This document shows, piece after piece, positions 585 through 51,570 of a stretch of 64,000 bases of DNA; position 1 is the first letter of the stretch, and every line of letters begins with the position of its first letter. The position numbers and the translations under genes were made by a program. A model generated the notes under the pieces. The model had not been told where the DNA came from. It worked only from the letters and a program-made list of their open reading frames with translations, and ran no database searches. Source of the stretch: Candidatus Nomurabacteria bacterium (GTDB lineage Bacteria; Patescibacteriota; Minisyncoccia; Phycocordibacterales; UBA9973); the NCBI GenBank assembly GCA_023267435.1, contig JAHFNH010000001.1, positions 16,253 to 80,252 of the forward strand, given 5' to 3'.

Positions 585-3500
585 TTATTGCCAAGAAATC
601 ACAACTCCACCATTACTTCCTTTTCCACCAGCGCCGCCATAAGTATTAGCTGTATCTTTTCTTTTTCCGCTTCCGCCTCCGCCACCACCGCCTCCGCCGC
701 CGCCACAAGTACCTCCGCCGCCATTACTACCATTATTTTTATCAGCACCACCATTACCACCATCTCCGCCCTTACCATTACAAGCTACAATACCTGGACC
801 CCAGGCATAAGCTGTAGAAAATGTACTTCCAGTACCACCTCCTGGTGTACCTCCACCACCTCCTGGATTAGGACTTATTCCACTTCCTCCTGCACCACCG
901 CCGCCAATATCAGATCCTCCATTTCCTCCACTGCCCCAACCATTACCCCAAGAAGGAATTGTGCCTGGACTTTGGTTTATTTGATAACTTAAAAAGTTAT
1001 CATGTGAAGCATTGCCACCACTTTTACCAGTGTCTGTAGCACCCGGAGCAGAAATTAATACAGTTGAACCAAGAGAAACAGAACTATTACCTCCAGGTGC
1101 ACCATCACCACCACCATGACTATCATTATTACCCGCACTTCCACCACCGCCTCCTGATCCAATTGCGACATTCAATATAGTTCCAAATTGAAGATTATTG
1201 GTACCACCAACATTGAAATCCTGTATTTGATATTTACCAAAACTACCACCGCCTCCGCCAGCACCTCCGTAATTAAAAGTATCAGAAAATCCACCACCGC
1301 CTCCGCCAGCACCTCCGCCCCAAGTTTCAACAGTTAATTTTTTAACACCTAATGGAATTTTAAAAACACCACTTGTAGAAAAAGAACTGGAACCAGGCGT
1401 AATATGAAATAGATTTAAATAAGAACGATAATAAACAATAACCTTTCCGTTACTTCCATTTCCACCGTGACCACCAATACCCTTAAATACTTCTGTATTC
1501 CCAACCCAACTAATATGTGATTCACCAGAATCAAGACCACCACCGCCTCCGCCAGCACCTCCGCCACCGCAAGTACCATCACTTCCATTAAAACCATTAA
1601 CCTCATGAGTACCACCATTTCCGCCTTTACCACCACCCTTACCACTACAATATAATAAAATGCCAGGTCCATATGTATAATTACCAACTGAAAAAATACC
1701 TCCAGTACCACCTATACCACCCACAGACTCGGAATGACCCTGGCCTCCATTTCCAGAAACATTAATGAATGAACCGCCACCGCCACCAGCACCTCCTCCA
1801 GCGCCATAATTAAAATTTACACCATAAACACTATCTGAACCAGTTCCACCAGGTCCAACACCACAAGAGGTACCGCCAGAAGTACTTCCATTATACAAAA
1901 AATCTTCCCCGCCAGTGCCACCACAGGCATGACTAGCACTAACTAATTTTAGATTGCCAAATTTAATAAAACTTTCAACACCATTGTTTGCTCGATAAGC
2001 TAAACTATCTCCATCAGTTCCAACATGTCCAGAACCACCGCCACCAACTTGAACACTTAAAGTTGCACCTGGTGTTACATTGACTCCAGTTTGATATTTA
2101 TAATCTCCAGCTGCACCGCCACCGCCGCCGGAACCACTATGCGCATGATGGCTATCAGAGCCACCTTGGCTACCACCGCCGCCGCCGCCGGAACCACTCC
2201 ACATTTCTACATCAATTTTATTTACATCAGTTGGTACTGGAAAAACACTAGAACAAGATCCATCGGTAATATTACAATCATAAGTAAAAGAATTTCGTTG
2301 AGCAGGAGTGGTGTAAAAAGTTGCAACATTTCCAGCAAAATCTACTCCGGTATAAGCAAGAGAGTATGCAGCACCACTGACGAGTGGAGCTGGTGCTGGA
2401 GAAGCACAACCATTCACAGTATCAGTCACATCAATCTGATGACCACCAAATTTTTTAGCATTACCTACCAGATTACAAGTACGAGTTGATATTGGATCAG
2501 TTTCGCCGTCAGTTCTTGTTGTGATTACAACGGTACCACTAGCAATAGCTTCACTAAGAGTATATTTAACCAGACTAGGAGCCAACATTAAAGGCGCACT
2601 AGAAAATACTGGTGGAGTGATATCAACTGTCACAAGTCTAGGAACAGATAATGCTGATGAAACTCCTGAAGTACTAACTGCTTTCGCTGTAAAAATATGT
2701 AATCCTTCAGCTAAAACAACCGGTAGATTCCACTTATCAAGACTATCGGTAATACCAGAAACAAAAGGGGTAAGGCTTGTCACGATAGGCACAGTAATTG
2801 TTTTTGAATTTGTACCAGTATTATTTGAACAAGTTAGAGTGTAATCTCTAGTTTGATCGGTTGAAATAGAAGTAAGCAAACCTGGAACAATAATATTACT
2901 ATGATCATCAGCACTTGGACCAACAACAGGGACTGGACCATTCCAATCATTTGTTTGAGGTGATGAAGAAGCAGTACACTGAACAGCTCCTGTCGTATCC
3001 CAATCAAGTTCAGAAGGACAGCTTCTATAAATGGGACCGAGATCAAAAAAAGAAAAATTTATAGTAGGTGGTTCTGTGGGTTCATTAAAGGATTTATTAG
3101 TTGGTGAAGTAGAACCACCTTTTTGAGCAACAGTAGAATATTTTGGACTTACAGCACTTAAACCAAAAGAACCAACAGATTGCAGAGTATAAGAATAAGT
3201 GGAACCAGCTTTTAACCCAACAACATTAATAGATGTTCCTGTAACTCCTGAATAAGATTTAAATAAACTACCTGTACTATCGTACACATTAATTTTATAA
3301 CCTGTAGCTTTAGAAACAGGAGTCCAATTTAATGTAACAGATCCAACATAAGATCTAGATGCACTAAGCGTAGTTACATGTTTTTGAGTTAAAGATCTAA
3401 AACTATTAATTGAATTAGGATCAGCACAAGGAGTATATCCGTCAAATATGGTAGCTGCACTTCCAGCACCCACCCCCCCAGTACCAAAGAGATTTATATG

Positions 3501-3671
3501 TGTTTTGTTTGTAAAATTATTTACAGGTGGAATGGTATTAATAAAATATTTCGTTGTCGGCGCCGCTATAAACCCTGTAATAGTGGAAGGATTTGCTGCA
3601 GCAAAAGTAGAATTAATAATAGTTAAAAAGACAAAACTAACAATAAACGCAAACGAAAATATTTTTTTCAT
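585..3671 (-). CDS. giant secreted surface protein: signal peptide + fibronectin-III-like + Ig-like modules + C-terminal glycine-rich repeats (Gly_rich/PF12810-like)
   Basis: Likely start is MKKIFSFAFIVSFVFLTIINSTFAAA (signal peptide) at 3671; the upstream MAEDFLLYRG extension would run into the rpsR terminator hairpin. Fn3-like SVTLNWTPVSKATGYKINVYDSTG. At least three repeats of the form V(E)xWsGsGGGGGG...Y.YQtGvNVtpGatLsVqVGGGGsG. Confidence 0.7.
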   Translation of the reverse strand: MKKIFSFAFIVSFVFLTIINSTFAAANPSTITGFIAAPTTKYFINTIPPVNNFTNKTHINLFGTGGVGAGSAATIFDGYTPCADPNSINSFRSLTQKHVTTLSASRSYVGSVTLNWTPVSKATGYKINVYDSTGSLFKSYSGVTGTSINVVGLKAGSTYSYTLQSVGSFGLSAVSPKYSTVAQKGGSTSPTNKSFNEPTEPPTINFSFFDLGPIYRSCPSELDWDTTGAVQCTASSSPQTNDWNGPVPVVGPSADDHSNIIVPGLLTSISTDQTRDYTLTCSNNTGTNSKTITVPIVTSLTPFVSGITDSLDKWNLPVVLAEGLHIFTAKAVSTSGVSSALSVPRLVTVDITPPVFSSAPLMLAPSLVKYTLSEAIASGTVVITTRTDGETDPISTRTCNLVGNAKKFGGHQIDVTDTVNGCASPAPAPLVSGAAYSLAYTGVDFAGNVATFYTTPAQRNSFTYDCNITDGSCSSVFPVPTDVNKIDVEMWSGSGGGGGGSQGGSDSHHAHSGSGGGGGAAGDYKYQTGVNVTPGATLSVQVGGGGSGHVGTDGDSLAYRANNGVESFIKFGNLKLVSASHACGGTGGEDFLYNGSTSGGTSCGVGPGGTGSDSVYGVNFNYGAGGGAGGGGGSFINVSGNGGQGHSESVGGIGGTGGIFSVGNYTYGPGILLYCSGKGGGKGGNGGTHEVNGFNGSDGTCGGGGAGGGGGGLDSGESHISWVGNTEVFKGIGGHGGNGSNGKVIVYYRSYLNLFHITPGSSSFSTSGVFKIPLGVKKLTVETWGGGAGGGGGGFSDTFNYGGAGGGGGSFGKYQIQDFNVGGTNNLQFGTILNVAIGSGGGGGSAGNNDSHGGGDGAPGGNSSVSLGSTVLISAPGATDTGKSGGNASHDNFLSYQINQSPGTIPSWGNGWGSGGNGGSDIGGGGAGGSGISPNPGGGGGTPGGGTGSTFSTAYAWGPGIVACNGKGGDGGNGGADKNNGSNGGGGTCGGGGGGGGGGGSGKRKDTANTYGGAGGKGSNGGVVISWQ

Positions 3672-3695
3672 AATATAAATTATACCACGATATAA

Positions 3696-3730
3696 CAAAA
3701 AATCCTCTGCCAATGGCGGAGGATTTTTAT
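3696..3730 (-). terminator. terminator of the rpsF-ssb-rpsR operon
   Basis: Stem TCCTCTGCC/GGCGGAGGA with T-run on the minus strand, 14 nt downstream of the rpsR stop. Confidence 0.55.
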
Positions 3731-3743
3731 TGTTAAAAACTTA

Positions 3744-3944
3744 TTATTTAGCTACAAAAGGAAGCAATCCCATGAAACGAGCACGTTTAACGGCCATTGT
3801 CAGAGCGCGTTGATTCTTGGAAGTAACACCTGTGCGCTTGTGGCTCATTATTTTGCCGTTGGGATTTAGAAATTTCTTTAAGATTTCAATATCTTTATAG
3901 TCTATGTATTTTATATTGTTTGATGAAAAGTAATCTTGTTTCAT
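3744..3944 (-). CDS. rpsR: 30S ribosomal protein S18
   Basis: Motif [28 protein letters not shown]; sits in a conserved rpsF-ssb-rpsR arrangement. Confidence 0.85.
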
Positions 3945-4011
3945 ATGTGATTTAGCTTATACCAAGTATGATTTTGTTAAATCAAATCATTTCTTGGGCA
4001 ATTATTGGTAA

Positions 4012-4464
4012 TTAAAATGGAATGTCTTCAGGGTTTATATCTTCTTCTGGATATTCAATAGTATCGATCTCTTCTGGTCCAGGTCCGGCTGGGGCTTTAG
4101 AAGCTTCAGCGTTATTTGATCCTCCACTTGGAGCACCACCTCTTGGTCCAAATTGTGTTCTGTCAGCGACGATTTCAGTACGATATTTTTTTGTACCATC
4201 CTTATCATCCCAACTTCTTGTCTGCATTCTTCCTTCAACCAGCATGGAACTTCCCTTTTTCATATACTGCGCGACTGTCTCTGCTTGGCGTCCGAAGACT
4301 ACGACATTGTGATAATCAGCTGATTCTTGTTTAGCACCATTCTTGTCTTTCCAAACACGATTGGTAGCAAGTGAAAATGAACAAACTTTGATACCTGAAG
4401 GAAGCGATCTTAATTCTGGATCGCGAGTAAGATTTCCTATTACAATTGCTTTGTTTAAATACAT
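4012..4464 (-). CDS. ssb: single-stranded DNA-binding protein
   Basis: OB-fold N-terminus (LNKAIVIGNLTRDPELR), Gly/Pro-rich linker and acidic C-terminal tail ending DIPF. Confidence 0.85.
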   Translation of the reverse strand: MYLNKAIVIGNLTRDPELRSLPSGIKVCSFSLATNRVWKDKNGAKQESADYHNVVVFGRQAETVAQYMKKGSSMLVEGRMQTRSWDDKDGTKKYRTEIVADRTQFGPRGGAPSGGSNNAEASKAPAGPGPEEIDTIEYPEEDINPEDIPF

Positions 4465-4477
4465 AATATTTTTTAAA

Positions 4478-4987
4478 TTAAACTGTAACTAAAGCGTCGA
4501 TTTCTTTATCTATCTCTTCTTTGTTAATTGGCTGTTCAGTTTCATTTTCTCCTTCCTTCTTGGCTGAAAATGTCTTGCGTCGAGTTATGTCTCCACGAAC
4601 AAATCTCTTTGCAGCAACGGTATTTTCTTTTACTGTTTTCAAGATCAAAGATCGAACAATGTTTGTATCAAGCTCAATTTTTTTCTTAAGATCTAATACT
4701 TTTTCAGGATCCATTGAAAACTTAATCCAGCCGAAATATCCAGTATCAAATTTATGTCTGATGTTCTGAACAACTTTCACCATAGTATAAGCAAGAGGAA
4801 TCATTCTAGGCATTTCGTCTGAGACGATTTCACCGCCTAAAGAATTAACAAGCTCTTTTAAATTGCTATAAATAGCAGATATGTTTTCTTCAGGAATAGT
4901 AGACATCAAAATATAGCCAACTTCGTATATTCTGGCATCTGTTCCCTCATTTTCAGCTTTATTTTCCATTTCTTTCATGACCTCCAT
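4478..4987 (-). CDS. rpsF: 30S ribosomal protein S6 with N- and C-terminal extensions
   Basis: ARIYEVGYIL... matches the S6 N-terminal pattern (RHYEIVFMV); lies in the operon with ssb and rpsR. Confidence 0.65.
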   Translation of the reverse strand: MEVMKEMENKAENEGTDARIYEVGYILMSTIPEENISAIYSNLKELVNSLGGEIVSDEMPRMIPLAYTMVKVVQNIRHKFDTGYFGWIKFSMDPEKVLDLKKKIELDTNIVRSLILKTVKENTVAAKRFVRGDITRRKTFSAKKEGENETEQPINKEEIDKEIDALVTV

Positions 4988-6116: not shown

Positions 6117-6476
6117 TTATTGTGTTTTTAATTCACTTAATATCTTAAGCAACACTCCATCCATATTAGTATTTATCTCTGCGTTTGTAAAACGCAAAAC
6201 TTTTATATCTAAGCCTTCGAAGTATTCACTTCTTATTTTATCGTACTCCATATTCTCTTTTTCAAAATGCTGTGAACCGTCAATTTCAATCACTATCTTT
6301 TTTAAAGGACAATAAAAGTCTGTAATATATCCACCAATACTATGTTGTCGACGAAATTTTACACCAAGTTGGGAATTTTTTAATTTATTCCATAATAAAA
6401 TTTCTTGCGGAGTAGCATTATTTATTAATTCTTTTCGTCGATAAAATAACTTTTTTATATTATGTATAGTATCCAT
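6117..6476 (-). CDS. DUF559 endonuclease-domain protein (Vsr-like fold), copy 1
   Basis: TPQEILLWNKLK...GVKFRRQHSIGGYITDFYCP...IVIEIDGSQH...VLRF, the DUF559 signature. Confidence 0.8.
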   Translation of the reverse strand: MDTIHNIKKLFYRRKELINNATPQEILLWNKLKNSQLGVKFRRQHSIGGYITDFYCPLKKIVIEIDGSQHFEKENMEYDKIRSEYFEGLDIKVLRFTNAEINTNMDGVLLKILSELKTQ

Positions 6477-6488
6477 TGCATTTTTGCA

Positions 6489-6512
6489 CCCCCTCCTTAA
6501 TAAAGGAGGGGG
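6489..6512. repeat. GC-rich palindrome CCCCCTCCTT-AATAA-AAGGAGGGGG (DUF559-associated hairpin family)
   Basis: Perfect 10-bp inverted repeat immediately 5' of DUF559 copy 1. Confidence 0.6.
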
Positions 6513-6565
6513 CTGGGGATGGTAATTCTGAATTTAATAAAATCACCACCCCGCCCTTTGGGCAC

Positions 6566-6586
6566 CCCTCCTCCACAAGGAGGGGA
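6566..6586. repeat. GC-rich palindrome CCCCTCC-n7-GGAGGGG (same family)
   Basis: 7-bp perfect stem; second hairpin in the same intergenic region. Confidence 0.55.
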
Positions 6587-6591
6587 AAATT

Positions 6592-8040
6592 CTAATCCTT
6601 CCTCAGGAATAAAGGAGTTTCTGGCATTTTGTTTGCAAAGATTGATTCTTGAATTTTTTTCGCAGTTTCAGGCAAGAATGATTCGAGTAATTTTGAAACA
6701 TGTAAAAGTTCTAAGACTAATTCTTTTATCATCTCTATTCCTTTTTCTTTGTCTTCTTTGATAACTTTAAACGGCTGTTCTTTTTGAATCTTCTCATCCA
6801 TACCTGAAACAAAAACCCAAATATGATCCATTGCTAATTTTAAATTAAAGTCTGCGATAGCATCTTCAAAAACTTTACTTGGTTTTATTTTAAAATCTTC
6901 AAAAATAACTGGACTAGTTAGATTTGTCTCTGCTAATTTCATAATGCGGGAAGTTAAATTTCCAATACCATTCGCCAGTCCAGCATTATATGTTTCCTTG
7001 AAACGCTCCATGGTAAATGGACTATCTTCAAAAGAAGAGACTTCACGCAATAAGAAATAACGGAGTGCGTCTGTGCCATATTCGTCGACAACATCTTTGG
7101 GATTAACAACATTACCTAAACTTTTAGACATTTTTAATCCACCTTCGGCTGTTACAAAACCATTGATAATTATTTGGTGAGAATTAGGCAATTCTGCCGC
7201 CATCAGCATCGCTTGCCACATCGCAGACTGGAAACGCAAATTGTCTTTACCACAATATTGCGTCGGTGTTCCATTAACCCAATATTTTTCAAAATTTTCT
7301 TTATTCTCCGGCCAGCCTAGAGTAGAAATATAATTTACCAAAGCATCAAACCAAACATACATAACATGATCAGGGTCGTTGGGTACTTCTATTCCCCAAG
7401 ACATTTTTGCTTTCAAGCGTGAAATAGAAAAATCTTGCAATCCCCTTTCGACGAAAGCTTTTATTTCATTGAAACGAAAATCTGGAACGACAAAATTCGG
7501 ATGAGATATATAAAATTCCATCAACTTATCGGCAAAGGCGCTGTATTTGAAAAAGTAATTTTCTTCGTGAATTATTTCAAGAGGTTTTCCTGGATGCAAT
7601 GGACACTCGCCATTTACTAGCTCAGAATCGCTTTTTGTCTCTTCACAACCGACGCAATATTTCGATTCATAATCTTTTTTATAAATAAATCCATTATCAT
7701 AAACACGTTTCCAAAATTCCTGTGCAGCTTTTATGTGATGCTCGTCTGTTGTCCTGACAAAATGAATATCTTCATCCATTCCAAAAATTCTTACTGATTC
7801 TTTAAAATGCAAAAAACTTTCATCTACGAATTCTTTAGTGGTCTTCCCTAGAGATTTAGCTTTTTCGTAGATTTTCATACCATGTTCGTCTGTACCAGTA
7901 TTAAAAAACACATCGAAACCTTCGAGTTTTTTAAAACGAGCGACAACATCAGCACGCACGAATTCAAGCGCATGGCCCATATGAAGATCGGCATTTACGT
8001 AAGGTAGAGTCGTTGTTATGTAAAAACTATTTTGCTTCAT
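6592..8040 (-). CDS. metG: methionyl-tRNA synthetase (short form, no C-terminal tRNA-binding domain)
   Basis: HIGH-type motif HMGH (TTTLPYVNADLHMGHA), KMSKS (KMSKSLGN), MetRS zinc-knuckle region. Start moved to the internal MKQNSFYITT to avoid overlap with the upstream gene. Confidence 0.85.
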   Translation of the reverse strand: MKQNSFYITTTLPYVNADLHMGHALEFVRADVVARFKKLEGFDVFFNTGTDEHGMKIYEKAKSLGKTTKEFVDESFLHFKESVRIFGMDEDIHFVRTTDEHHIKAAQEFWKRVYDNGFIYKKDYESKYCVGCEETKSDSELVNGECPLHPGKPLEIIHEENYFFKYSAFADKLMEFYISHPNFVVPDFRFNEIKAFVERGLQDFSISRLKAKMSWGIEVPNDPDHVMYVWFDALVNYISTLGWPENKENFEKYWVNGTPTQYCGKDNLRFQSAMWQAMLMAAELPNSHQIIINGFVTAEGGLKMSKSLGNVVNPKDVVDEYGTDALRYFLLREVSSFEDSPFTMERFKETYNAGLANGIGNLTSRIMKLAETNLTSPVIFEDFKIKPSKVFEDAIADFNLKLAMDHIWVFVSGMDEKIQKEQPFKVIKEDKEKGIEMIKELVLELLHVSKLLESFLPETAKKIQESIFANKMPETPLFLRKD

Positions 8041-9106
8041 TGCCTGTTCGAGCGAAGATTTTATCTTTCTCAATATCATTTACAAATTCCATTAAAGAAA
8101 CAGCCGTCGGAATAGCTAGAATTAATCCCCAGAAACCAGCCAACTCATAGCCAATCAATATTGCCAGAATAACAACCAAAGGAGAAAGTCCCACCACTTT
8201 TTTAACAATAAGAGGATAAAGCAAATAAATTTCAAACTGGTGAATTATAAGATATGCTCCCAAGACCATCAAAGAACTGGAAACTCCGCCGGAAAGATAA
8301 GCGAAGGAAATTGCCGGCACCATGGCAACGATCAAACCATAAGGAACAAGTTCCATAACTCCCGTCAGAATGGCTAAAAGCAGAGCATATTGAATTCCCA
8401 AGAGAGAAAGAACTAAATATGTCAGTACAGCAATCAGAACTCCTAGAAGCATCTGACCTTTAACCCATAATGCAATTTTATGATGTGCGCGATTCCATAA
8501 ATCTACAGCGTAATCTTCGTGCTTTTGCGGTATCACAATGCGCAAAAAACTCTCGATACCCTTTTCTTGAATAGAAAGATAAAAAGAAATAACAATAATC
8601 ATGCCGACATTGAAGAAACTTCCGAAAGCTGAAGAAAGTGTTTGAAAGAAACCGCCGGAAAGATTTGAAATGAAAGCTCTGGAAGTATCAAGTAGTGTCG
8701 AAAGAGAAAAATTATTGGAAAGATTTGCCACGATATCCCTGGCTCCAGAGAAAGCGTTATTTTGGAAATAATTCAAGAAACCAGAATCTGGAATGTAGGC
8801 AGAAAGGAAAGTTGAAAAATTATAAATTTCGGTAATGAGTAGTGGAGTGAATAAATAAAAGAGCGTAGCTAAAAATAATATTGAAAAGAAATAAATCAAC
8901 ACCACTCCAAAAACTCGCCCAATACCTATCCTCTTCATTTTACCAGCAGCTGATCCGGCAAATGACGCGATGACGATCGAAGTAAGAATGATCAGCACCA
9001 AATCACGCAAAAAGTAAATTAGAAAAAAACCTAAACCAACTAAAACTGCACGGATCATCGTGTCAGTCGATATTGAAATCGATGTTATTTTATTTTTTTC
9101 ATTCAT
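8027..9106 (-). CDS. AI-2E family transporter-like polytopic membrane protein
   Basis: About 8 predicted TM helices; pattern resembles UPF0118/PerM. Confidence 0.45.
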   Translation of the reverse strand: MNEKNKITSISISTDTMIRAVLVGLGFFLIYFLRDLVLIILTSIVIASFAGSAAGKMKRIGIGRVFGVVLIYFFSILFLATLFYLFTPLLITEIYNFSTFLSAYIPDSGFLNYFQNNAFSGARDIVANLSNNFSLSTLLDTSRAFISNLSGGFFQTLSSAFGSFFNVGMIIVISFYLSIQEKGIESFLRIVIPQKHEDYAVDLWNRAHHKIALWVKGQMLLGVLIAVLTYLVLSLLGIQYALLLAILTGVMELVPYGLIVAMVPAISFAYLSGGVSSSLMVLGAYLIIHQFEIYLLYPLIVKKVVGLSPLVVILAILIGYELAGFWGLILAIPTAVSLMEFVNDIEKDKIFARTGNEAK

Positions 9107-9135
9107 AACAATATAATAACACAGAAGAAAAAACT

Positions 9136-10404
9136 TTAAAACTTGAGAATTTTAGAAAATTTAGCCTTTTCTTTAAAAGGACCAATCAAAGCCAAATTTA
9201 ATATTTCGTTCTTAAAAATTTTATTCGCCAAGTCTTTAATCTGAATAGCTGTAACTTTCCTGATTTCGTTAGCTTTTTCTTCTGCTAAATGAATTTCCCT
9301 CTTTAAGAGCTCTTGTCCGCCGTAAAAGTTCGCAATATCGTCACTAGACTCTAAAGAAAGCTTCATATTACCGATCAAACATTCTTTTACTTTACCGAGT
9401 TCATCTTCAGAAACTAAATCATTTTTCAATTTTCGGCATTCTTCTAAAACAGCTTCGATAACTTCATTGATTCTTTTATTGTCTACCCCAGCGGAAACTT
9501 GAAAAACTCCGTGATCAGTATAAACATCATTATATGCACGAACGTAATATCCGACACCCATTTCTTCACGTAATTTCTGAAAAAGCCTGGAACTCATTCC
9601 CCCACCCAGCACGCCTCCTAAGACAGAAAGCACTGGATTCTTTTTGTTAAATAAATCGAAAGAGCGCACACCTAAAACAAAATGTGTTTGATCTGTTTTT
9701 TTAAATTTCACTAAGACTTCCGGCTTCTTTTGAGCTTCTTTCACTTTTAATTTTTTAGATTTCTTTCCGCGTGGAATATTTCCGAAAACTTTTTCAACTT
9801 CTTTCATCACATCTTTTTCGGTCACCTGTCCTGCGACTACCAATAATGTCGCTTCCGGTAAATAATGTGCTTTTTTGTAATTCACAAAATCATCACGCTT
9901 CATTTTCAAAATATTTTTCTTTTCTCCCGCAATATTCCAACCCGCTGGTTGGTTACCATAAAGTAATTCCATAAATAAATCCTGCACGTGCCTGTTGGGC
10001 ATATCTTCGTACATATTTATTTCTTCGATAATCACACCTTTTTCTTTTTGCATTTCTGCTTCAGGAAAAGTAGAATTCAAATAAATATCAGAAACTACGT
10101 CAAAAATCTGCTTGAAGTGACGTGCGTCAGACTTCGCATAATAACCTGTATATTCTTGGCCAGTAAAAGCGTTGTATTGAGAACCGAGTGCATCTAATTC
10201 CTTGGAAATATCAATCGCCTTGGGTCTTTTCACTGTTCCCTTGAAACACATATGTTCTAAGAAATGCGAAATACCATTTATCTTTTTTGTTTCGTATTTT
10301 GAACCAGCTTCCACTAATACCAAAACCGTAGCCGTAGGATTATCCTTCATCGGCACAATAATAACTCTGAGTCCGTTATGTAAAACTTTTTTTGTGAATT
10401 TCAT
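9136..10404 (-). CDS. M16-family (pitrilysin/insulinase-like) zinc peptidase
   Basis: Inverted zinc motif HxxEH in GISHFLEHMCFKGT; length 422 aa. Confidence 0.8.
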   Translation of the reverse strand: MKFTKKVLHNGLRVIIVPMKDNPTATVLVLVEAGSKYETKKINGISHFLEHMCFKGTVKRPKAIDISKELDALGSQYNAFTGQEYTGYYAKSDARHFKQIFDVVSDIYLNSTFPEAEMQKEKGVIIEEINMYEDMPNRHVQDLFMELLYGNQPAGWNIAGEKKNILKMKRDDFVNYKKAHYLPEATLLVVAGQVTEKDVMKEVEKVFGNIPRGKKSKKLKVKEAQKKPEVLVKFKKTDQTHFVLGVRSFDLFNKKNPVLSVLGGVLGGGMSSRLFQKLREEMGVGYYVRAYNDVYTDHGVFQVSAGVDNKRINEVIEAVLEECRKLKNDLVSEDELGKVKECLIGNMKLSLESSDDIANFYGGQELLKREIHLAEEKANEIRKVTAIQIKDLANKIFKNEILNLALIGPFKEKAKFSKILKF

Positions 10405-10440
10405 AAAATAATCTTAACACATATTAACACCCCACCCCAA

Positions 10441-10464
10441 CCCTCCCCTTGGCTAATGGGAGGG
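10441..10464. repeat. GC-rich palindrome CCCTCCC-n10-GGGAGGG (DUF559-associated)
   Basis: Immediately 3' of DUF559 copy 2. Confidence 0.5.
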
Positions 10465-10812
10465 AGAGTCTAATTCACTACTAATTTTCTGTAATACTCC
10501 ATCTATATTTGCATTTACTTCATTGTTCCAAAAACGAAGAGTTTTTATTTCCAACCCAAGAAGATAGTTATCTCTTTCTTGATCGTACTCTTTATTATCT
10601 AAATGTTGAGAACCATCTAGTTCAACTGCTATTTTCTTATCAGGACAATAAAAATCTAAAATATATGGACCAATAGAATGTTGGCGTTTAAATTTAAAAC
10701 CGAGTTGATTTCTTCTTAACCTAGCCCAAAGTAGTACTTCTTGTGGAGTTTGATTTTTCCTCAATTCAATCCGGCGTTCTTTTAAAATTGGATGATTATG
10801 AGTAATAGTCAT
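10453..10812 (-). CDS. DUF559 endonuclease-domain protein, copy 2
   Basis: TPQEVLLWARLRRNQLGFKFKRQHSIGPYILDFYCPDKKIAVELDGSQH; paralog of 6117..6476 with the same length (119 aa). Confidence 0.8.
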   Translation of the reverse strand: MTITHNHPILKERRIELRKNQTPQEVLLWARLRRNQLGFKFKRQHSIGPYILDFYCPDKKIAVELDGSQHLDNKEYDQERDNYLLGLEIKTLRFWNNEVNANIDGVLQKISSELDSPSH

Positions 10813-10833
10813 TTTAACTTTGTATTGTATTCC

Positions 10834-10857
10834 TCCTCCCCTTCGCCAAGGGGAGGA
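10834..10857. repeat. GC-rich palindrome TCCTCCCCTT-CGCC-AAGGGGAGGA (DUF559-associated)
   Basis: Perfect 10-bp stem immediately 5' of DUF559 copy 2. Confidence 0.6.
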
Positions 10858-10874
10858 TTGAGGTGGGGTGCTAA

Positions 10875-11543
10875 CTATTTCTTCTTAGCCTTTACAATAA
10901 AAAATCCAGGATATTTACCACCATTTATCTGCTCAGCCGCAGGGTCCCATACTTCTTTATAATCTATCATTTCAAATTTACTGAAGAAATCTAAATTAAA
11001 GTATTCATTCATCGTATGAGTAGGCTCCTTTAATTCAACAGTGCCCTCTAAAATCAAACAATCAACAATGACTTGTTTGAAATAGTCACTAGCGAGTTTT
11101 TTTCTTTCAATAAATTGTCTAAATGGATGAGTTACAAGATAAACAAGTAAACCACCAGGTTTCAAAACGCGAAACATTTCATTAAAAATTTGTTTCATGT
11201 CTGGAGATGTCATGATTGCATATTTTGTAAAAACAGCATCAAATGAATTATTTTCAAATGGAATATTTTCGGCAAAACCTTGAATAAATTCAACAGATGG
11301 ATACTTTGTTTTTGCTATGTCGATAAGCGACTGTGACGCATCTAAACCAACAACAGTTGCTCCAATAGTTCTATAATATTCTGCGTCAATGCCATCACCG
11401 CATGCCAAATCTAACACTTTTTGGTTAGTTAAATCAGTTCCGGTCATACTTCTCATTTCAAACCTGTTTATTTGATTTTTCTCCTCTTGGTTTACTGAAA
11501 AATCTTGAGCGAATTCATCATATTGTGTACGTATATCATTCAT
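10875..11543 (-). CDS. class I SAM-dependent methyltransferase
   Basis: Motif I VLDLACGDGIDAEY; motif post-I VVGLDAS; LKPGG. Confidence 0.75.
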   Translation of the reverse strand: MNDIRTQYDEFAQDFSVNQEEKNQINRFEMRSMTGTDLTNQKVLDLACGDGIDAEYYRTIGATVVGLDASQSLIDIAKTKYPSVEFIQGFAENIPFENNSFDAVFTKYAIMTSPDMKQIFNEMFRVLKPGGLLVYLVTHPFRQFIERKKLASDYFKQVIVDCLILEGTVELKEPTHTMNEYFNLDFFSKFEMIDYKEVWDPAAEQINGGKYPGFFIVKAKKK

Positions 11544-20824: not shown

Positions 20825-20850
20825 AAAGCCCTTCCAAAAGGAAGGGCTTT
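20825..20850 (-). terminator. rho-independent terminator
   Basis: GCCCTTCC-AAAA-GGAAGGGC perfect 8-bp stem with flanking T-run, downstream of the 20875..21348 gene. Confidence 0.65.
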
Positions 20851-35945: not shown

Positions 35946-35973
35946 ATCGCCCTCGAGTAAACTCGAGGGCGAT
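35946..35973. terminator. bidirectional terminator (convergent with the fusA end)
   Basis: Perfect 12-bp stem ATCGCCCTCGAG-TAAA-CTCGAGGGCGAT with T-run. Confidence 0.75.
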
Positions 35974-46941: not shown

Positions 46942-46968
46942 ATAGCCCGCGACCTAGGTCGCGGGCTA
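46942..46968 (+). terminator. rpmB terminator
   Basis: TAGCCCGCGACC-TAG-GTCGCGGGCTA perfect stem followed by a T-run. Confidence 0.75.
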
Positions 46969-48586: not shown

Positions 48587-48751
48587 ATATTTTTTTGTGT
48601 CATGGATTTCAATCTCCAGACACAAAAGTCATAGATGATTTCCACAATCGTCAGTCTCGTTATTAATAGAGGGCTCGTTGGCCCAAGTGAGATTGATAAG
48701 TTAAGAATAGCATTTATATAAAACATTGTCAAATATAAAAAATAAAAGGGC

Positions 48752-48778
48752 CTTTGTGTTATACACAAAGGCCCTAAA
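48752..48778 (-). terminator. terminator after the dCMP deaminase gene
   Basis: GGGCCTTTGTGT-TATA-CACAAAGGCCC perfect 12-bp stem. Confidence 0.7.
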
Positions 48779-51543: not shown

Positions 51544-51570
51544 AGAGCCCCCGACTTGGTCGGGGGCTCT
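51544..51570 (-). terminator. terminator immediately after rplK (no rplA follows)
   Basis: AGAGCCCCCGAC-TTG-GTCGGGGGCTCT with T-run. Confidence 0.75.

Follow-up and report, generated by a model that had tools for sequence, protein, structure and literature searches.

DUF559 nuclease genes bounded by BoxC/PIT/TM-type repeats in a Candidatus Nomurabacteria genome: candidate selfish modules

The two DUF559 genes and their repeat ends

The stretch of DNA analysed here (the window) comprises 64 kb of a 242-kb contig from a Candidatus Nomurabacteria bacterium. It is AT-rich (36% G+C) and carries two small genes of the DUF559 family, each accompanied by GC-rich palindromes (Table 1). Both genes lie on the minus strand and encode 119-aa proteins that share 59% identity (70/118 residues), in agreement with the figure of about 60% given in the original prediction, which was made from the letters of the window. 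Both are members of the family, with Pfam scores of 102.9 and 116.1 bits against a gathering cut-off of 20.6, and their Pfam matches are limited to DUF559, MTES_1575 and PvuRts1I-like domains. The closest solved structure is 3hrl (E = 3e-27), and an acidic/His core (D53, E64, D66 and H70 in copy 2 numbering) is invariant across 28 homologues. The fold of the window nucleases is PD-(D/E)xK, Vsr-like. The two copies belong to different clades, with copy 1 grouping with genes at the loci L020, L024 and L027 (L-numbers denote loci from other genomes), and a hidden Markov model (HMM) built from 28 homologues and run against six frames found no third DUF559 gene in the window.

The four palindromes at these genes have perfect stems of 7-10 bp in which a C/T arm faces a G/A arm. 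The original prediction had described all four, and its descriptions stand apart from the loop of palindrome A, which has 4 nt (AATA) rather than 5. It had also reported no other copies, and when all 64 kb were scanned for GC-rich stems with 7 or more perfectly paired bp, likewise no further palindrome combined a 5' pyrimidine arm with a 3' purine arm; base-shuffled windows contain 0-4 GC-rich palindromes of any kind. Each palindrome bears a G-rich mirror strand on exactly one side, a feature that had been overlooked. The G-box reproduces the purine arm in reverse order, G facing G and either T or A facing A, and the match scores 7, 8, 8 and 8 of 8 (8/8 for each end of module 2, described below, and 8/8 and 7/8 for the two units of copy 1). 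Purine arm and G-strand are separated by loops of 2, 3, 3 and 12 nt, and the other palindromes of the window score at most 4.

Copy 2 lies within an inverted repeat of 54 nt (10424-10477 versus 10821-10874, 80% complementary), which had also been overlooked, and forms with its ends what is referred to here as module 2. Alignment with L001 gives sharp limits, AGCACCCCACC...GGTGGGGTG(C/T)T, also AGCACCCCACC...GGTGGGGTGCT; the L001 protein is 85% identical to that of copy 2, yet its gene lies at another locus, between a kinase-like gene and secD. The same limits are obtained with L003 and L005, and the flanks diverge directly outside them. Read in the orientation of the gene, module 2 starts with the C-box CACCCCACCTCAAT, the palindrome CCTCCCCTT-GGCG-AAGGGGAGG, 24 nt and the ATG, and it ends with the TAG stop in the loop of CCCTCCC-ATTAGCCAA-GGGGAGGG, followed by the G-box TTGGGGTGGGGTG. 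The left end, read on the plus strand, consists of pyrimidine arm, loop CGCC, purine arm, loop and the G-strand AGGTGGGG (10861-10868), while the right end is a triplex-motif unit on the sense strand of the gene. This is the commonest single layout, in which two units are inverted and the G/C boxes are outermost.

Since the stop codon of copy 2 lies in the loop of the right-end palindrome, the C-terminal residues SPSH are encoded by the repeat. The 'SPSP', 'SPSS' and 'PLLNKERGG' tails of many DUF559 homologues are likewise repeat-encoded, and E. coli ycjD, also a DUF559 gene, ends in SPSP with its stop codon within a degenerate unit. The recurrent 'SPSP/SPSH/PLL..GEG' tails and the N-terminal extensions of DUF559 annotations are explained as read-through into the repeat.

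Both units of copy 1 lie upstream, in a composite that begins after the metG stop, and no unit was found 3' of this gene. In gene orientation, palindrome B is followed by a mini-hairpin (6553-6563) and a G-strand (plus strand 6544-6552), and then by a 21-nt spacer, a C-box (6515-6525), palindrome A and the ATG. As single-stranded DNA, this 115-nt stretch is predicted to fold into four consecutive hairpins (-30.9 kcal/mol, z = -5.15). The same composite is kept in L020 (two copies), L024 and L027, with compensatory variants in L011, L033 and L037.

Table 1. Features of the window, in window coordinates.
Feature	Position	Strand	Description
DUF559 copy 1	6117..6476	minus	119 aa; Pfam PF04480, E = 1e-29
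DUF559 copy 2	10453..10812	minus	119 aa; Pfam PF04480, E = 9e-34
Module 2, whole	10426..10872	minus	447 bp: left end, DUF559 gene, right end
Module 2, left end	10826..10872	minus	terminal C-box 10859-10872 and palindrome 10834-10857
Module 2, right end	10426..10464	minus	palindrome 10441-10464, G-strand GGGTGGGG, terminal GTG(T)T
Composite 5' of copy 1	6487..6588	minus	two triplex-motif units back to back, both G/C boxes central
Palindrome A	6489-6512		5' of copy 1; CCCCCTCCTT-AATA-AAGGAGGGGG, loop 4 nt
Palindrome B	6565-6585		5' of copy 1; CCCCTCCT-CCACA-AGGAGGGG
Palindrome C	10441-10464		3' of copy 2; CCCTCCC-n10-GGGAGGG; overlaps last codons and stop of copy 2
Palindrome D	10834-10857		5' of copy 2; TCCTCCCCTT-CGCC-AAGGGGAGGA
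Class I S-adenosylmethionine methyltransferase	10875..11543	minus	Methyltransf_11/25; directly outside module 2 left end
Cys-rich open reading frame, 101 aa	5809..6114	minus	between copy 1 and tatD; CCAKC...C...CSKGH; 2-nt gaps
Five terminator-like palindromes	20828-20847, 35946-35973, 46943-46968, 48748-48774, 51544-51570		GC-rich, perfect; A-tract before and T-tract after the stem

Coupling of DUF559 genes and triplex-motif units across genomes

By their architecture, the window units are assignable to the BoxC/PIT/TM family of intrastrand-triplex repeats, and some units elsewhere belong to it by near-identical sequence, such as the unit CCCTCTCCTTAATAAGGAGAGGGTAGGGTGAGG of L007 and L009, which is nearly identical to the E. 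coli TMECO type A sequence CCCTCTCCCTTGAGGGAGAGGGTTAGGGTGAGGGT. BoxC (E. coli), PIT (Hoyne and Maher) and TM/TMECO (triplex motif; Holder et al. 2015) are three names for one family that has been known since the 1990s (PMC4666352). The original prediction was not aware of a described cognate palindrome, a statement that has to be withdrawn in view of this match. In both the described repeats and the window units, three blocks are found, namely a pyrimidine arm, a loop and purine arm, and a 2-3-nt loop with a mirror G-strand, giving G·G:C and T·A:T triads (Bergler 1992; Hoyne and Maher 2000; Holder et al. 2015, PMC4666352). The two are also alike in being intergenic, in occurring singly or as inverted pairs, in their presence in many phyla and at variable loci, and in their near-identical sequence in some clades. 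A unit of this type is able to adopt a hairpin or intrastrand-triplex fold, and such folding is predicted for the window sequences.

TMECO forms a triplex in vitro, has 23 copies in MG1655 and represents a motif found in more than 260 genomes; TM units block polymerases, TM loci are tied to genomic instability, being more rearranged among E. coli strains, and purine-motif triplexes do not form in RNA (PMC4666352). Published TM work describes no associated mobility or nuclease gene, and according to the most thorough study no transposase or integrase has ever been found near TM repeats (PMC4666352). Unlike BoxC/PIT/TM repeats elsewhere, the window units occur only as ends of DUF559 modules: the many dispersed intergenic copies typical of the family are not found in the window, where the 64 kb contain four units, each at a DUF559 gene, although dispersed copies do occur in other genomes (E. 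coli and metagenome units). One window unit also differs in having a 12-nt second loop with a mini-hairpin, whereas the ITxF triplex finder allows loops of 1-6 nt (PMC4666352).

The coupling of gene and repeat was followed in two samples. The gene-first sample consists of 80 DUF559 loci from species-representative genomes of Patescibacteria, Chloroflexota, Deinococcus, Bacteroidota, Acidobacteriota and other phyla; these are the best-scoring relatives of copy 2, a non-random sample, and units were detected in them by perfect 7-bp stems. Within 150 nt of DUF559, unit density is 5.1/kb, versus 0.14/kb in the remaining 418 kb of flanks, a 37-fold enrichment, and at least one perfect unit stands beside the gene in 63 of the 80 loci. 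A mirror score of at least 7/8 is reached in 145/362 hairpin-strand instances at these loci (control, 2/362). When upstream and downstream sequences of the same gene are compared, the median inverted-repeat score is 32.5, against medians of 16-17 in two controls, and 49/78 loci exceed the 95th percentile of the controls. Of the loci with informative loop sequences, 14 have them inverted and 4 direct, which indicates that the ends are true inverted repeats and not a duplicated target.

Units face outward about twice as often as inward (roughly 2:1), and composites of the copy 1 type recur in copy 1's own clade. At two loci (L155 3795-4346 and L020 2878-3620), DUF559 genes are found with direct, non-inverted repeats of a 100-nt composite, so that the layout of units around the gene is not fixed. 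On a GC-rich metagenome contig (L082 4320-5383), six palindrome copies occupy 1.1 kb, three on each side of DUF559, each with a second small hairpin (TGCCTCCGCAGGAGGCGGAG) between purine arm and G-strand.

The repeat-first sample was obtained by scanning metagenomes with one exact subtype pattern, CCTCCCCTTNNNNAAGGGGAGG, and comprises at least 120 loci. Most of the metagenome sites listed are gene-less units of about 50 nt, of the form TAACCCCACCC..palindrome..GGAGGGGTTA, next to ordinary, mostly housekeeping genes. In the 686 kb of hairpin-selected loci that were listed and scanned with a sensitive DUF559 HMM, there are five DUF559 genes, and all five lie within 100 nt of a unit. Taken together with the enrichment in other phyla, this bears out the original proposal that the palindromes are real, non-random companions of DUF559. 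DUF559 genes almost always have units, while most units have no DUF559. The palindromes had further been taken to be specifically gene-associated, which is correct within the window and incorrect elsewhere; their abundance throughout a genome irrespective of DUF559 had been named in advance as evidence to the contrary, and in part this is what was found, in that most copies elsewhere are gene-less.

The gene-less units (L087, L108, L109, L127, L146, L163, L173, L192 and others) have TAACCCC...GGGGTTA ends, and their TAA is often used by the upstream gene as its stop codon, although the automated definition of their ends is noisy. Their box pairs CCCCACC/GGAGGGG and CCCCTCC/GGTGGGG represent a single element read in either orientation, in which one non-complementary position is conserved. 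A Watson-Crick stem between the boxes was considered and replaced by the mirror (triplex) rule, which accounts for this conserved A.A or T.T position.

In complete E. coli genomes the repeat is present in 5426/5426, at a median of 19 places per genome, and ycjD in 3378/5426, so the repeats persist without ycjD. TMECO #9 lies 168 nt downstream of ycjD. At the K-12 locus (L247 4262-4305), an AT-rich palindrome with a 16-bp stem, CACCTCATTCTGACAA...TTGTCAGAATGAGGTG, overlaps the GTG start of ycjD and is no triplex-motif unit.

Insertion, inheritance and the route of spread

In three relatives whose M16 peptidase is 85-93% identical to that of the window, the order GlyRS-M16-AI2E-MetRS-TatD is maintained without DUF559; their GlyRS|M16 and MetRS|TatD junctions measure 1-7 nt, and no repeat unit is found at these empty junctions. 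Another relative (L203) has a DUF559 module at MetRS|TatD only. Given such empty sites in relatives, the modules behave like inserts between neighbouring housekeeping genes. The junctions have been occupied repeatedly, by at least four DUF559 clades at MetRS|TatD and at least three at GlyRS|M16.

Comparison of the ends indicates that they follow the protein clade and not the host genome, with local similarity scores of 8-12 for paralogues of the same genome, including both window copies, and of 30-100 for genes of the same clade in different genomes. Between module 2 and L001, synonymous divergence is saturated (dS 1.56), with 10 of 27 four-fold sites identical, while the left, non-coding end is identical at 53/54 positions and the right end at 42/46. 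The ends are thus far more conserved than four-fold sites, which places them under selection. Purifying selection on the protein is evident as well from ratios of nonsynonymous to synonymous substitution (dN/dS) of 0.05-0.21 across DUF559 comparisons, with 0.05-0.08 for copy 2 versus L001, L003 and L005 and 0.11-0.16 for copy 1. As these alignments indicate, a DUF559 gene and its ends are inherited and inserted as one unit.

Units can also move alone, as judged from L011, where a 45-nt unit (4473-4494, within an open reading frame at 3356-4819) lies in frame inside tatD, adding 15 residues (SPTPSASGHSPSGRG), and has no counterpart in the window tatD, which is 80% identical. The locus also has three 100-nt composites, near-identical to one another, that separate genes, and the gene upstream of tatD is fused with tatD into one 487-aa open reading frame through a stop-free composite repeat.

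The upstream neighbour of DUF559 is co-directional in 58/63 loci and the downstream neighbour in 36/57. With a co-directional upstream gene and no promoter-like or terminator-like signals in the modules above shuffle expectation, expression by read-through is likely.

The architecture, the identity of the repeat family, the enrichment, the joint inheritance, the insertion polymorphism and the purifying selection on protein and ends are all directly supported. On this basis, it is an evenly balanced proposition that each DUF559 gene supplies the coding portion of a small, selfish module whose BoxC/PIT/TM-type ends are acted on by the Vsr-like nuclease. Co-diversification of gene and ends, constrained end sequences, polymorphic insertion and the existence of gene-less relatives all fit this reading. 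The action of the nuclease on the repeats, and with it the whole route of spread, is what we infer. The Vsr-like nuclease would recognise its own end sequence, folded or as a duplex, and nick or cut it there; the module, and perhaps gene-less units too, would then be copied or relocated by the recombination or replication repair of the host. Spread would be nuclease-driven and homing-like, unlike classical transposition, and the module, having no promoter of its own, would be expressed by read-through from the co-directional upstream gene. A broader and more doubtful possibility is that DUF559/YcjD proteins are the missing trans-acting partner of BoxC/PIT/TM repeats in general, acting as structure-specific nucleases that, by recognising the hairpin-triplex fold of the ends, drive the spread of modules and gene-less units alike.

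Several observations weigh against the selfish-module reading. The strictly canonical layout is seen in only 23 of 80 loci, the layouts being heterogeneous. Among the matches listed, a DUF559 open reading frame lies within 200 nt at 8 of 75 metagenome sites with full context, and no DUF559 remnants were found beside gene-less units by the sensitive HMM in the 686 kb listed, for which reason a reading of these units as scars of decayed modules is rejected. In E. coli, the 38% of genomes without ycjD keep the repeats. Gene-less units near modules, in the few cases available, are usually of another subtype than the ends of the resident module. The comparison with module-less relatives that had been proposed at the outset did reveal empty sites, yet the target-site duplications sought with them were not seen: none is visible at the borders of module 2, L001 or L203, although the TAA...TTA ends of gene-less units could hide a TA duplication. 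Paralogues of one genome, at 50-72% identity, are old and give no sign of recent copying within it. Furthermore, PD-(D/E)xK hydrolases are not known, to our knowledge, to catalyse strand transfer or to join DNA, and the link between DUF559 and the repeats is genomic rather than biochemical.

The main rival is a free-standing homing endonuclease gene, which would cut a site in or between conserved neighbours and be copied in by way of its flanks, the ends being accessory and no substrate; they might insulate expression or stall polymerases. The module resembles such genes, including the Vsr-like I-Bth0305I, in being a small nuclease gene between conserved co-directional genes, with presence or absence at one locus among close relatives, here at identical junctions of the GlyRS-M16-AI2E-MetRS-TatD string. 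Vsr, DUF559 and the intron homing endonuclease I-Bth0305I share one PD-(D/E)xK clade (PMC3424549), copy 1 has a weak PADLOC 'HEase' match, and the empty sites without a unit show that a pre-existing unit is not needed as target. However, homing endonuclease genes are not bounded by inverted repeats, and homing leaves unexplained why the ends are conserved far above synonymous sites and co-diversify with the protein. Several unrelated clades in one junction, together with a near-identical module elsewhere (L001), would be unexpected from flank-guided homing, and no sequence match to I-Bth0305I (3r3p) was found at E < 0.01. Homing is regarded as unlikely, and the remaining explanations are ranked lower. 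It is quite unlikely that DUF559 is a host-serving caretaker, a domesticated structure-specific nickase for replication-stalling hairpins or triplexes that, like a RAYT, merely sits among its substrates while the units spread by their own means. Strong purifying selection, single-copy status, long-lived syntenic positions, gene-less units that far outnumber genes, and the tendency of units to block polymerases and mark unstable loci (PMC4666352) would suit a caretaker, but close relatives manage well with no copy at these sites, E. coli genomes without ycjD retain their repeats, and the only units in the 64 kb are those attached to genes, leaving nothing else there to tend.

An indirect association, in which triplex motifs make fragile, recombination-prone sites where any accessory gene may land, would agree with the more frequent rearrangement of TM loci among E. 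coli strains (PMC4666352), with the alternation of ycjD and the eefRABCD operon at sapF-fabI (PMC12817139) and with the other accessory genes held by both window junctions in relatives. This is very unlikely, given that the RHH pair, the PaaX_M gene and the 180-aa open reading frame at these junctions have no units, that the ends share limits and sequence with the DUF559 gene across loci and track the protein clade, and that gene-less units mostly have ordinary housekeeping neighbours. Hardly probable at all is an element acting as RNA, whose ends would pair into a long stem or local hairpins in a polycistronic transcript, to be processed (e.g., by RNase III, as in rRNA intervening sequences) or to stabilise or terminate the DUF559 message. 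The complementarity of the ends, the co-directional neighbours and the lack of promoters and terminators above shuffle expectation are compatible with it. Against this, there is no excess of G:U on the sense strand (T:G 6 versus C:A 6 in hairpins, 50 versus 41 end to end), the stems are near-perfect DNA palindromes, and the boxes obey the mirror rule with its conserved A.A/T.T, whereas purine-motif triplexes are not formed in RNA (PMC4666352). The units also lack the T-tracts carried by the true terminators of the window, and they have no Rfam match: covariance models gave nothing at the gathering score and nothing credible at E <= 10.

Other identities were rejected. Intrinsic terminators and promoters are no more frequent than in shuffles, and the units have no T-tracts. 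A restriction-modification pair is rejected because the adjacent methyltransferase, of a small-molecule type, is located beyond the inverted repeat and is missing from orthologous modules. Matches to known defence systems are weak and at the domain level only: PADLOC models gave no full-length match for the window nucleases, with partial nuclease-domain matches at E 1e-5 or weaker. Carriage by phages to any extent is likewise dismissed, with 21 distant DUF559 relatives (at most 43% identity) and 21 pattern matches in 2.9 million viral contigs. As for a classified insertion sequence, Pfam shows no DDE, DEDD, HUH, Ser or Tyr transposase and no target duplication is visible, although the terminal inverted repeats are those expected of an insertion sequence or a MITE.

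Among known systems, repetitive extragenic palindromic (REP) sequences, REPINs and their RAYT genes are alike in having a single-copy, vertically stable nuclease gene, inverted structured repeats, dispersed gene-less singles and doublets, and a repeat cognate to the enzyme lineage, and the 54-nt inverted repeat of copy 2 is REPtron-like in placing inverted repeat copies on either side of the gene. The RAYT enzyme is an HUH Y1 (IS200/IS605-like) transposase, whereas that of the window is a 119-aa PD-(D/E)xK Vsr-like protein; the REPtron GTAG/CGTC foot tag is absent, the termini being AGCACCCC / TAACCCC; and, unlike REP, the repeat follows the triplex mirror rule and has no gene-less copies in the window. 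The module is analogous to REP/RAYT and not a member, so that the REPtron arrangement proposed in the original prediction holds as a functional analogy but not as an identity. Vsr is similar in its fold and acidic/His catalytic core, and many homologues are annotated Vsr by JGI; unlike Vsr, the window proteins are assigned by Pfam to DUF559, without a PF03852 match, and no C5 DNA methyltransferase is adjacent, the neighbouring methyltransferase being of the Methyltransf_11/UbiE type. Rickettsia palindromic elements are similar short palindromes, located between genes or in frame inside protein genes. Yeast mitochondrial GC clusters (GC42; PMC4478555) are also short GC-rich palindromes that spread in an AT-rich genome, intergenically and sometimes in frame, as with the 45-nt unit in the L011 tatD. 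Both differ from the units described here in their host (an organelle and Rickettsia, respectively) and in that no mirror G-strand or linked nuclease gene is known for them.

The origin, spread and function of BoxC/PIT/TM repeats are unexplained although they have been known from E. coli since the early 1990s and are present in hundreds of genomes, and DUF559, for which a structure has been solved (3hrl) and which includes YcjD of E. coli, is a large orphan family of no described function. The repeat family gains its first candidate partner enzyme and, if gene and repeat are cognate, the two orphans become testable together in a tractable organism, as a nuclease-plus-repeat system on a fold other than that of RAYTs. 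Should the broader proposal be true, it would define a mobile-element class relying on a Vsr-like hydrolase and on repair by the host in place of DDE, HUH, serine or tyrosine chemistry, and the instability reported at triplex-motif loci would be explained. The repeat family and the DUF559 fold assignment were already known; what may be new is the consistent, cognate coupling of DUF559 and repeat across phyla. No paper linking DUF559 or ycjD to triplex-motif repeats was found in the searchable literature, which covers few papers of subscription journals, so an earlier description is possible.

Neighbouring genes and other features of the window

The methyltransferase gene beside module 2 is absent from L003, L005 and L016, where DUF559 directly follows GlyRS, and from the relatives with empty sites; lying outside the inverted repeat, it is an accessory neighbour and no part of module 2. 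The 101-aa Cys-rich open reading frame matches nothing in Pfam, NCBIfam or PADLOC, and the 80 loci contain no homologue. None of the close relatives examined has it, and it is inserted relative to them, the MetRS|TatD junction measuring 2-4 nt in three relatives.

Both GlyRS|M16 and MetRS|TatD are recurrent landing sites for unrelated small accessory genes (L202, L204, L011 and the window), including the methyltransferase of the window, an RHH pair, a PaaX_M gene, a 180-aa open reading frame and a glutamine amidotransferase-like gene. Accessory genes other than DUF559 have no triplex-motif units of their own at these junctions, which argues against a general hot-spot effect.

The five further palindromes of Table 1 look like bidirectional intrinsic terminators, a class distinct from the DUF559-associated palindromes, which have no flanking A-tract or T-tract. 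Most genes of the window are on the minus strand. GC skew is negative in nearly every 1-kb bin and the cumulative skew falls steadily over the 64 kb, consistent with a single replichore and mostly minus-strand genes.

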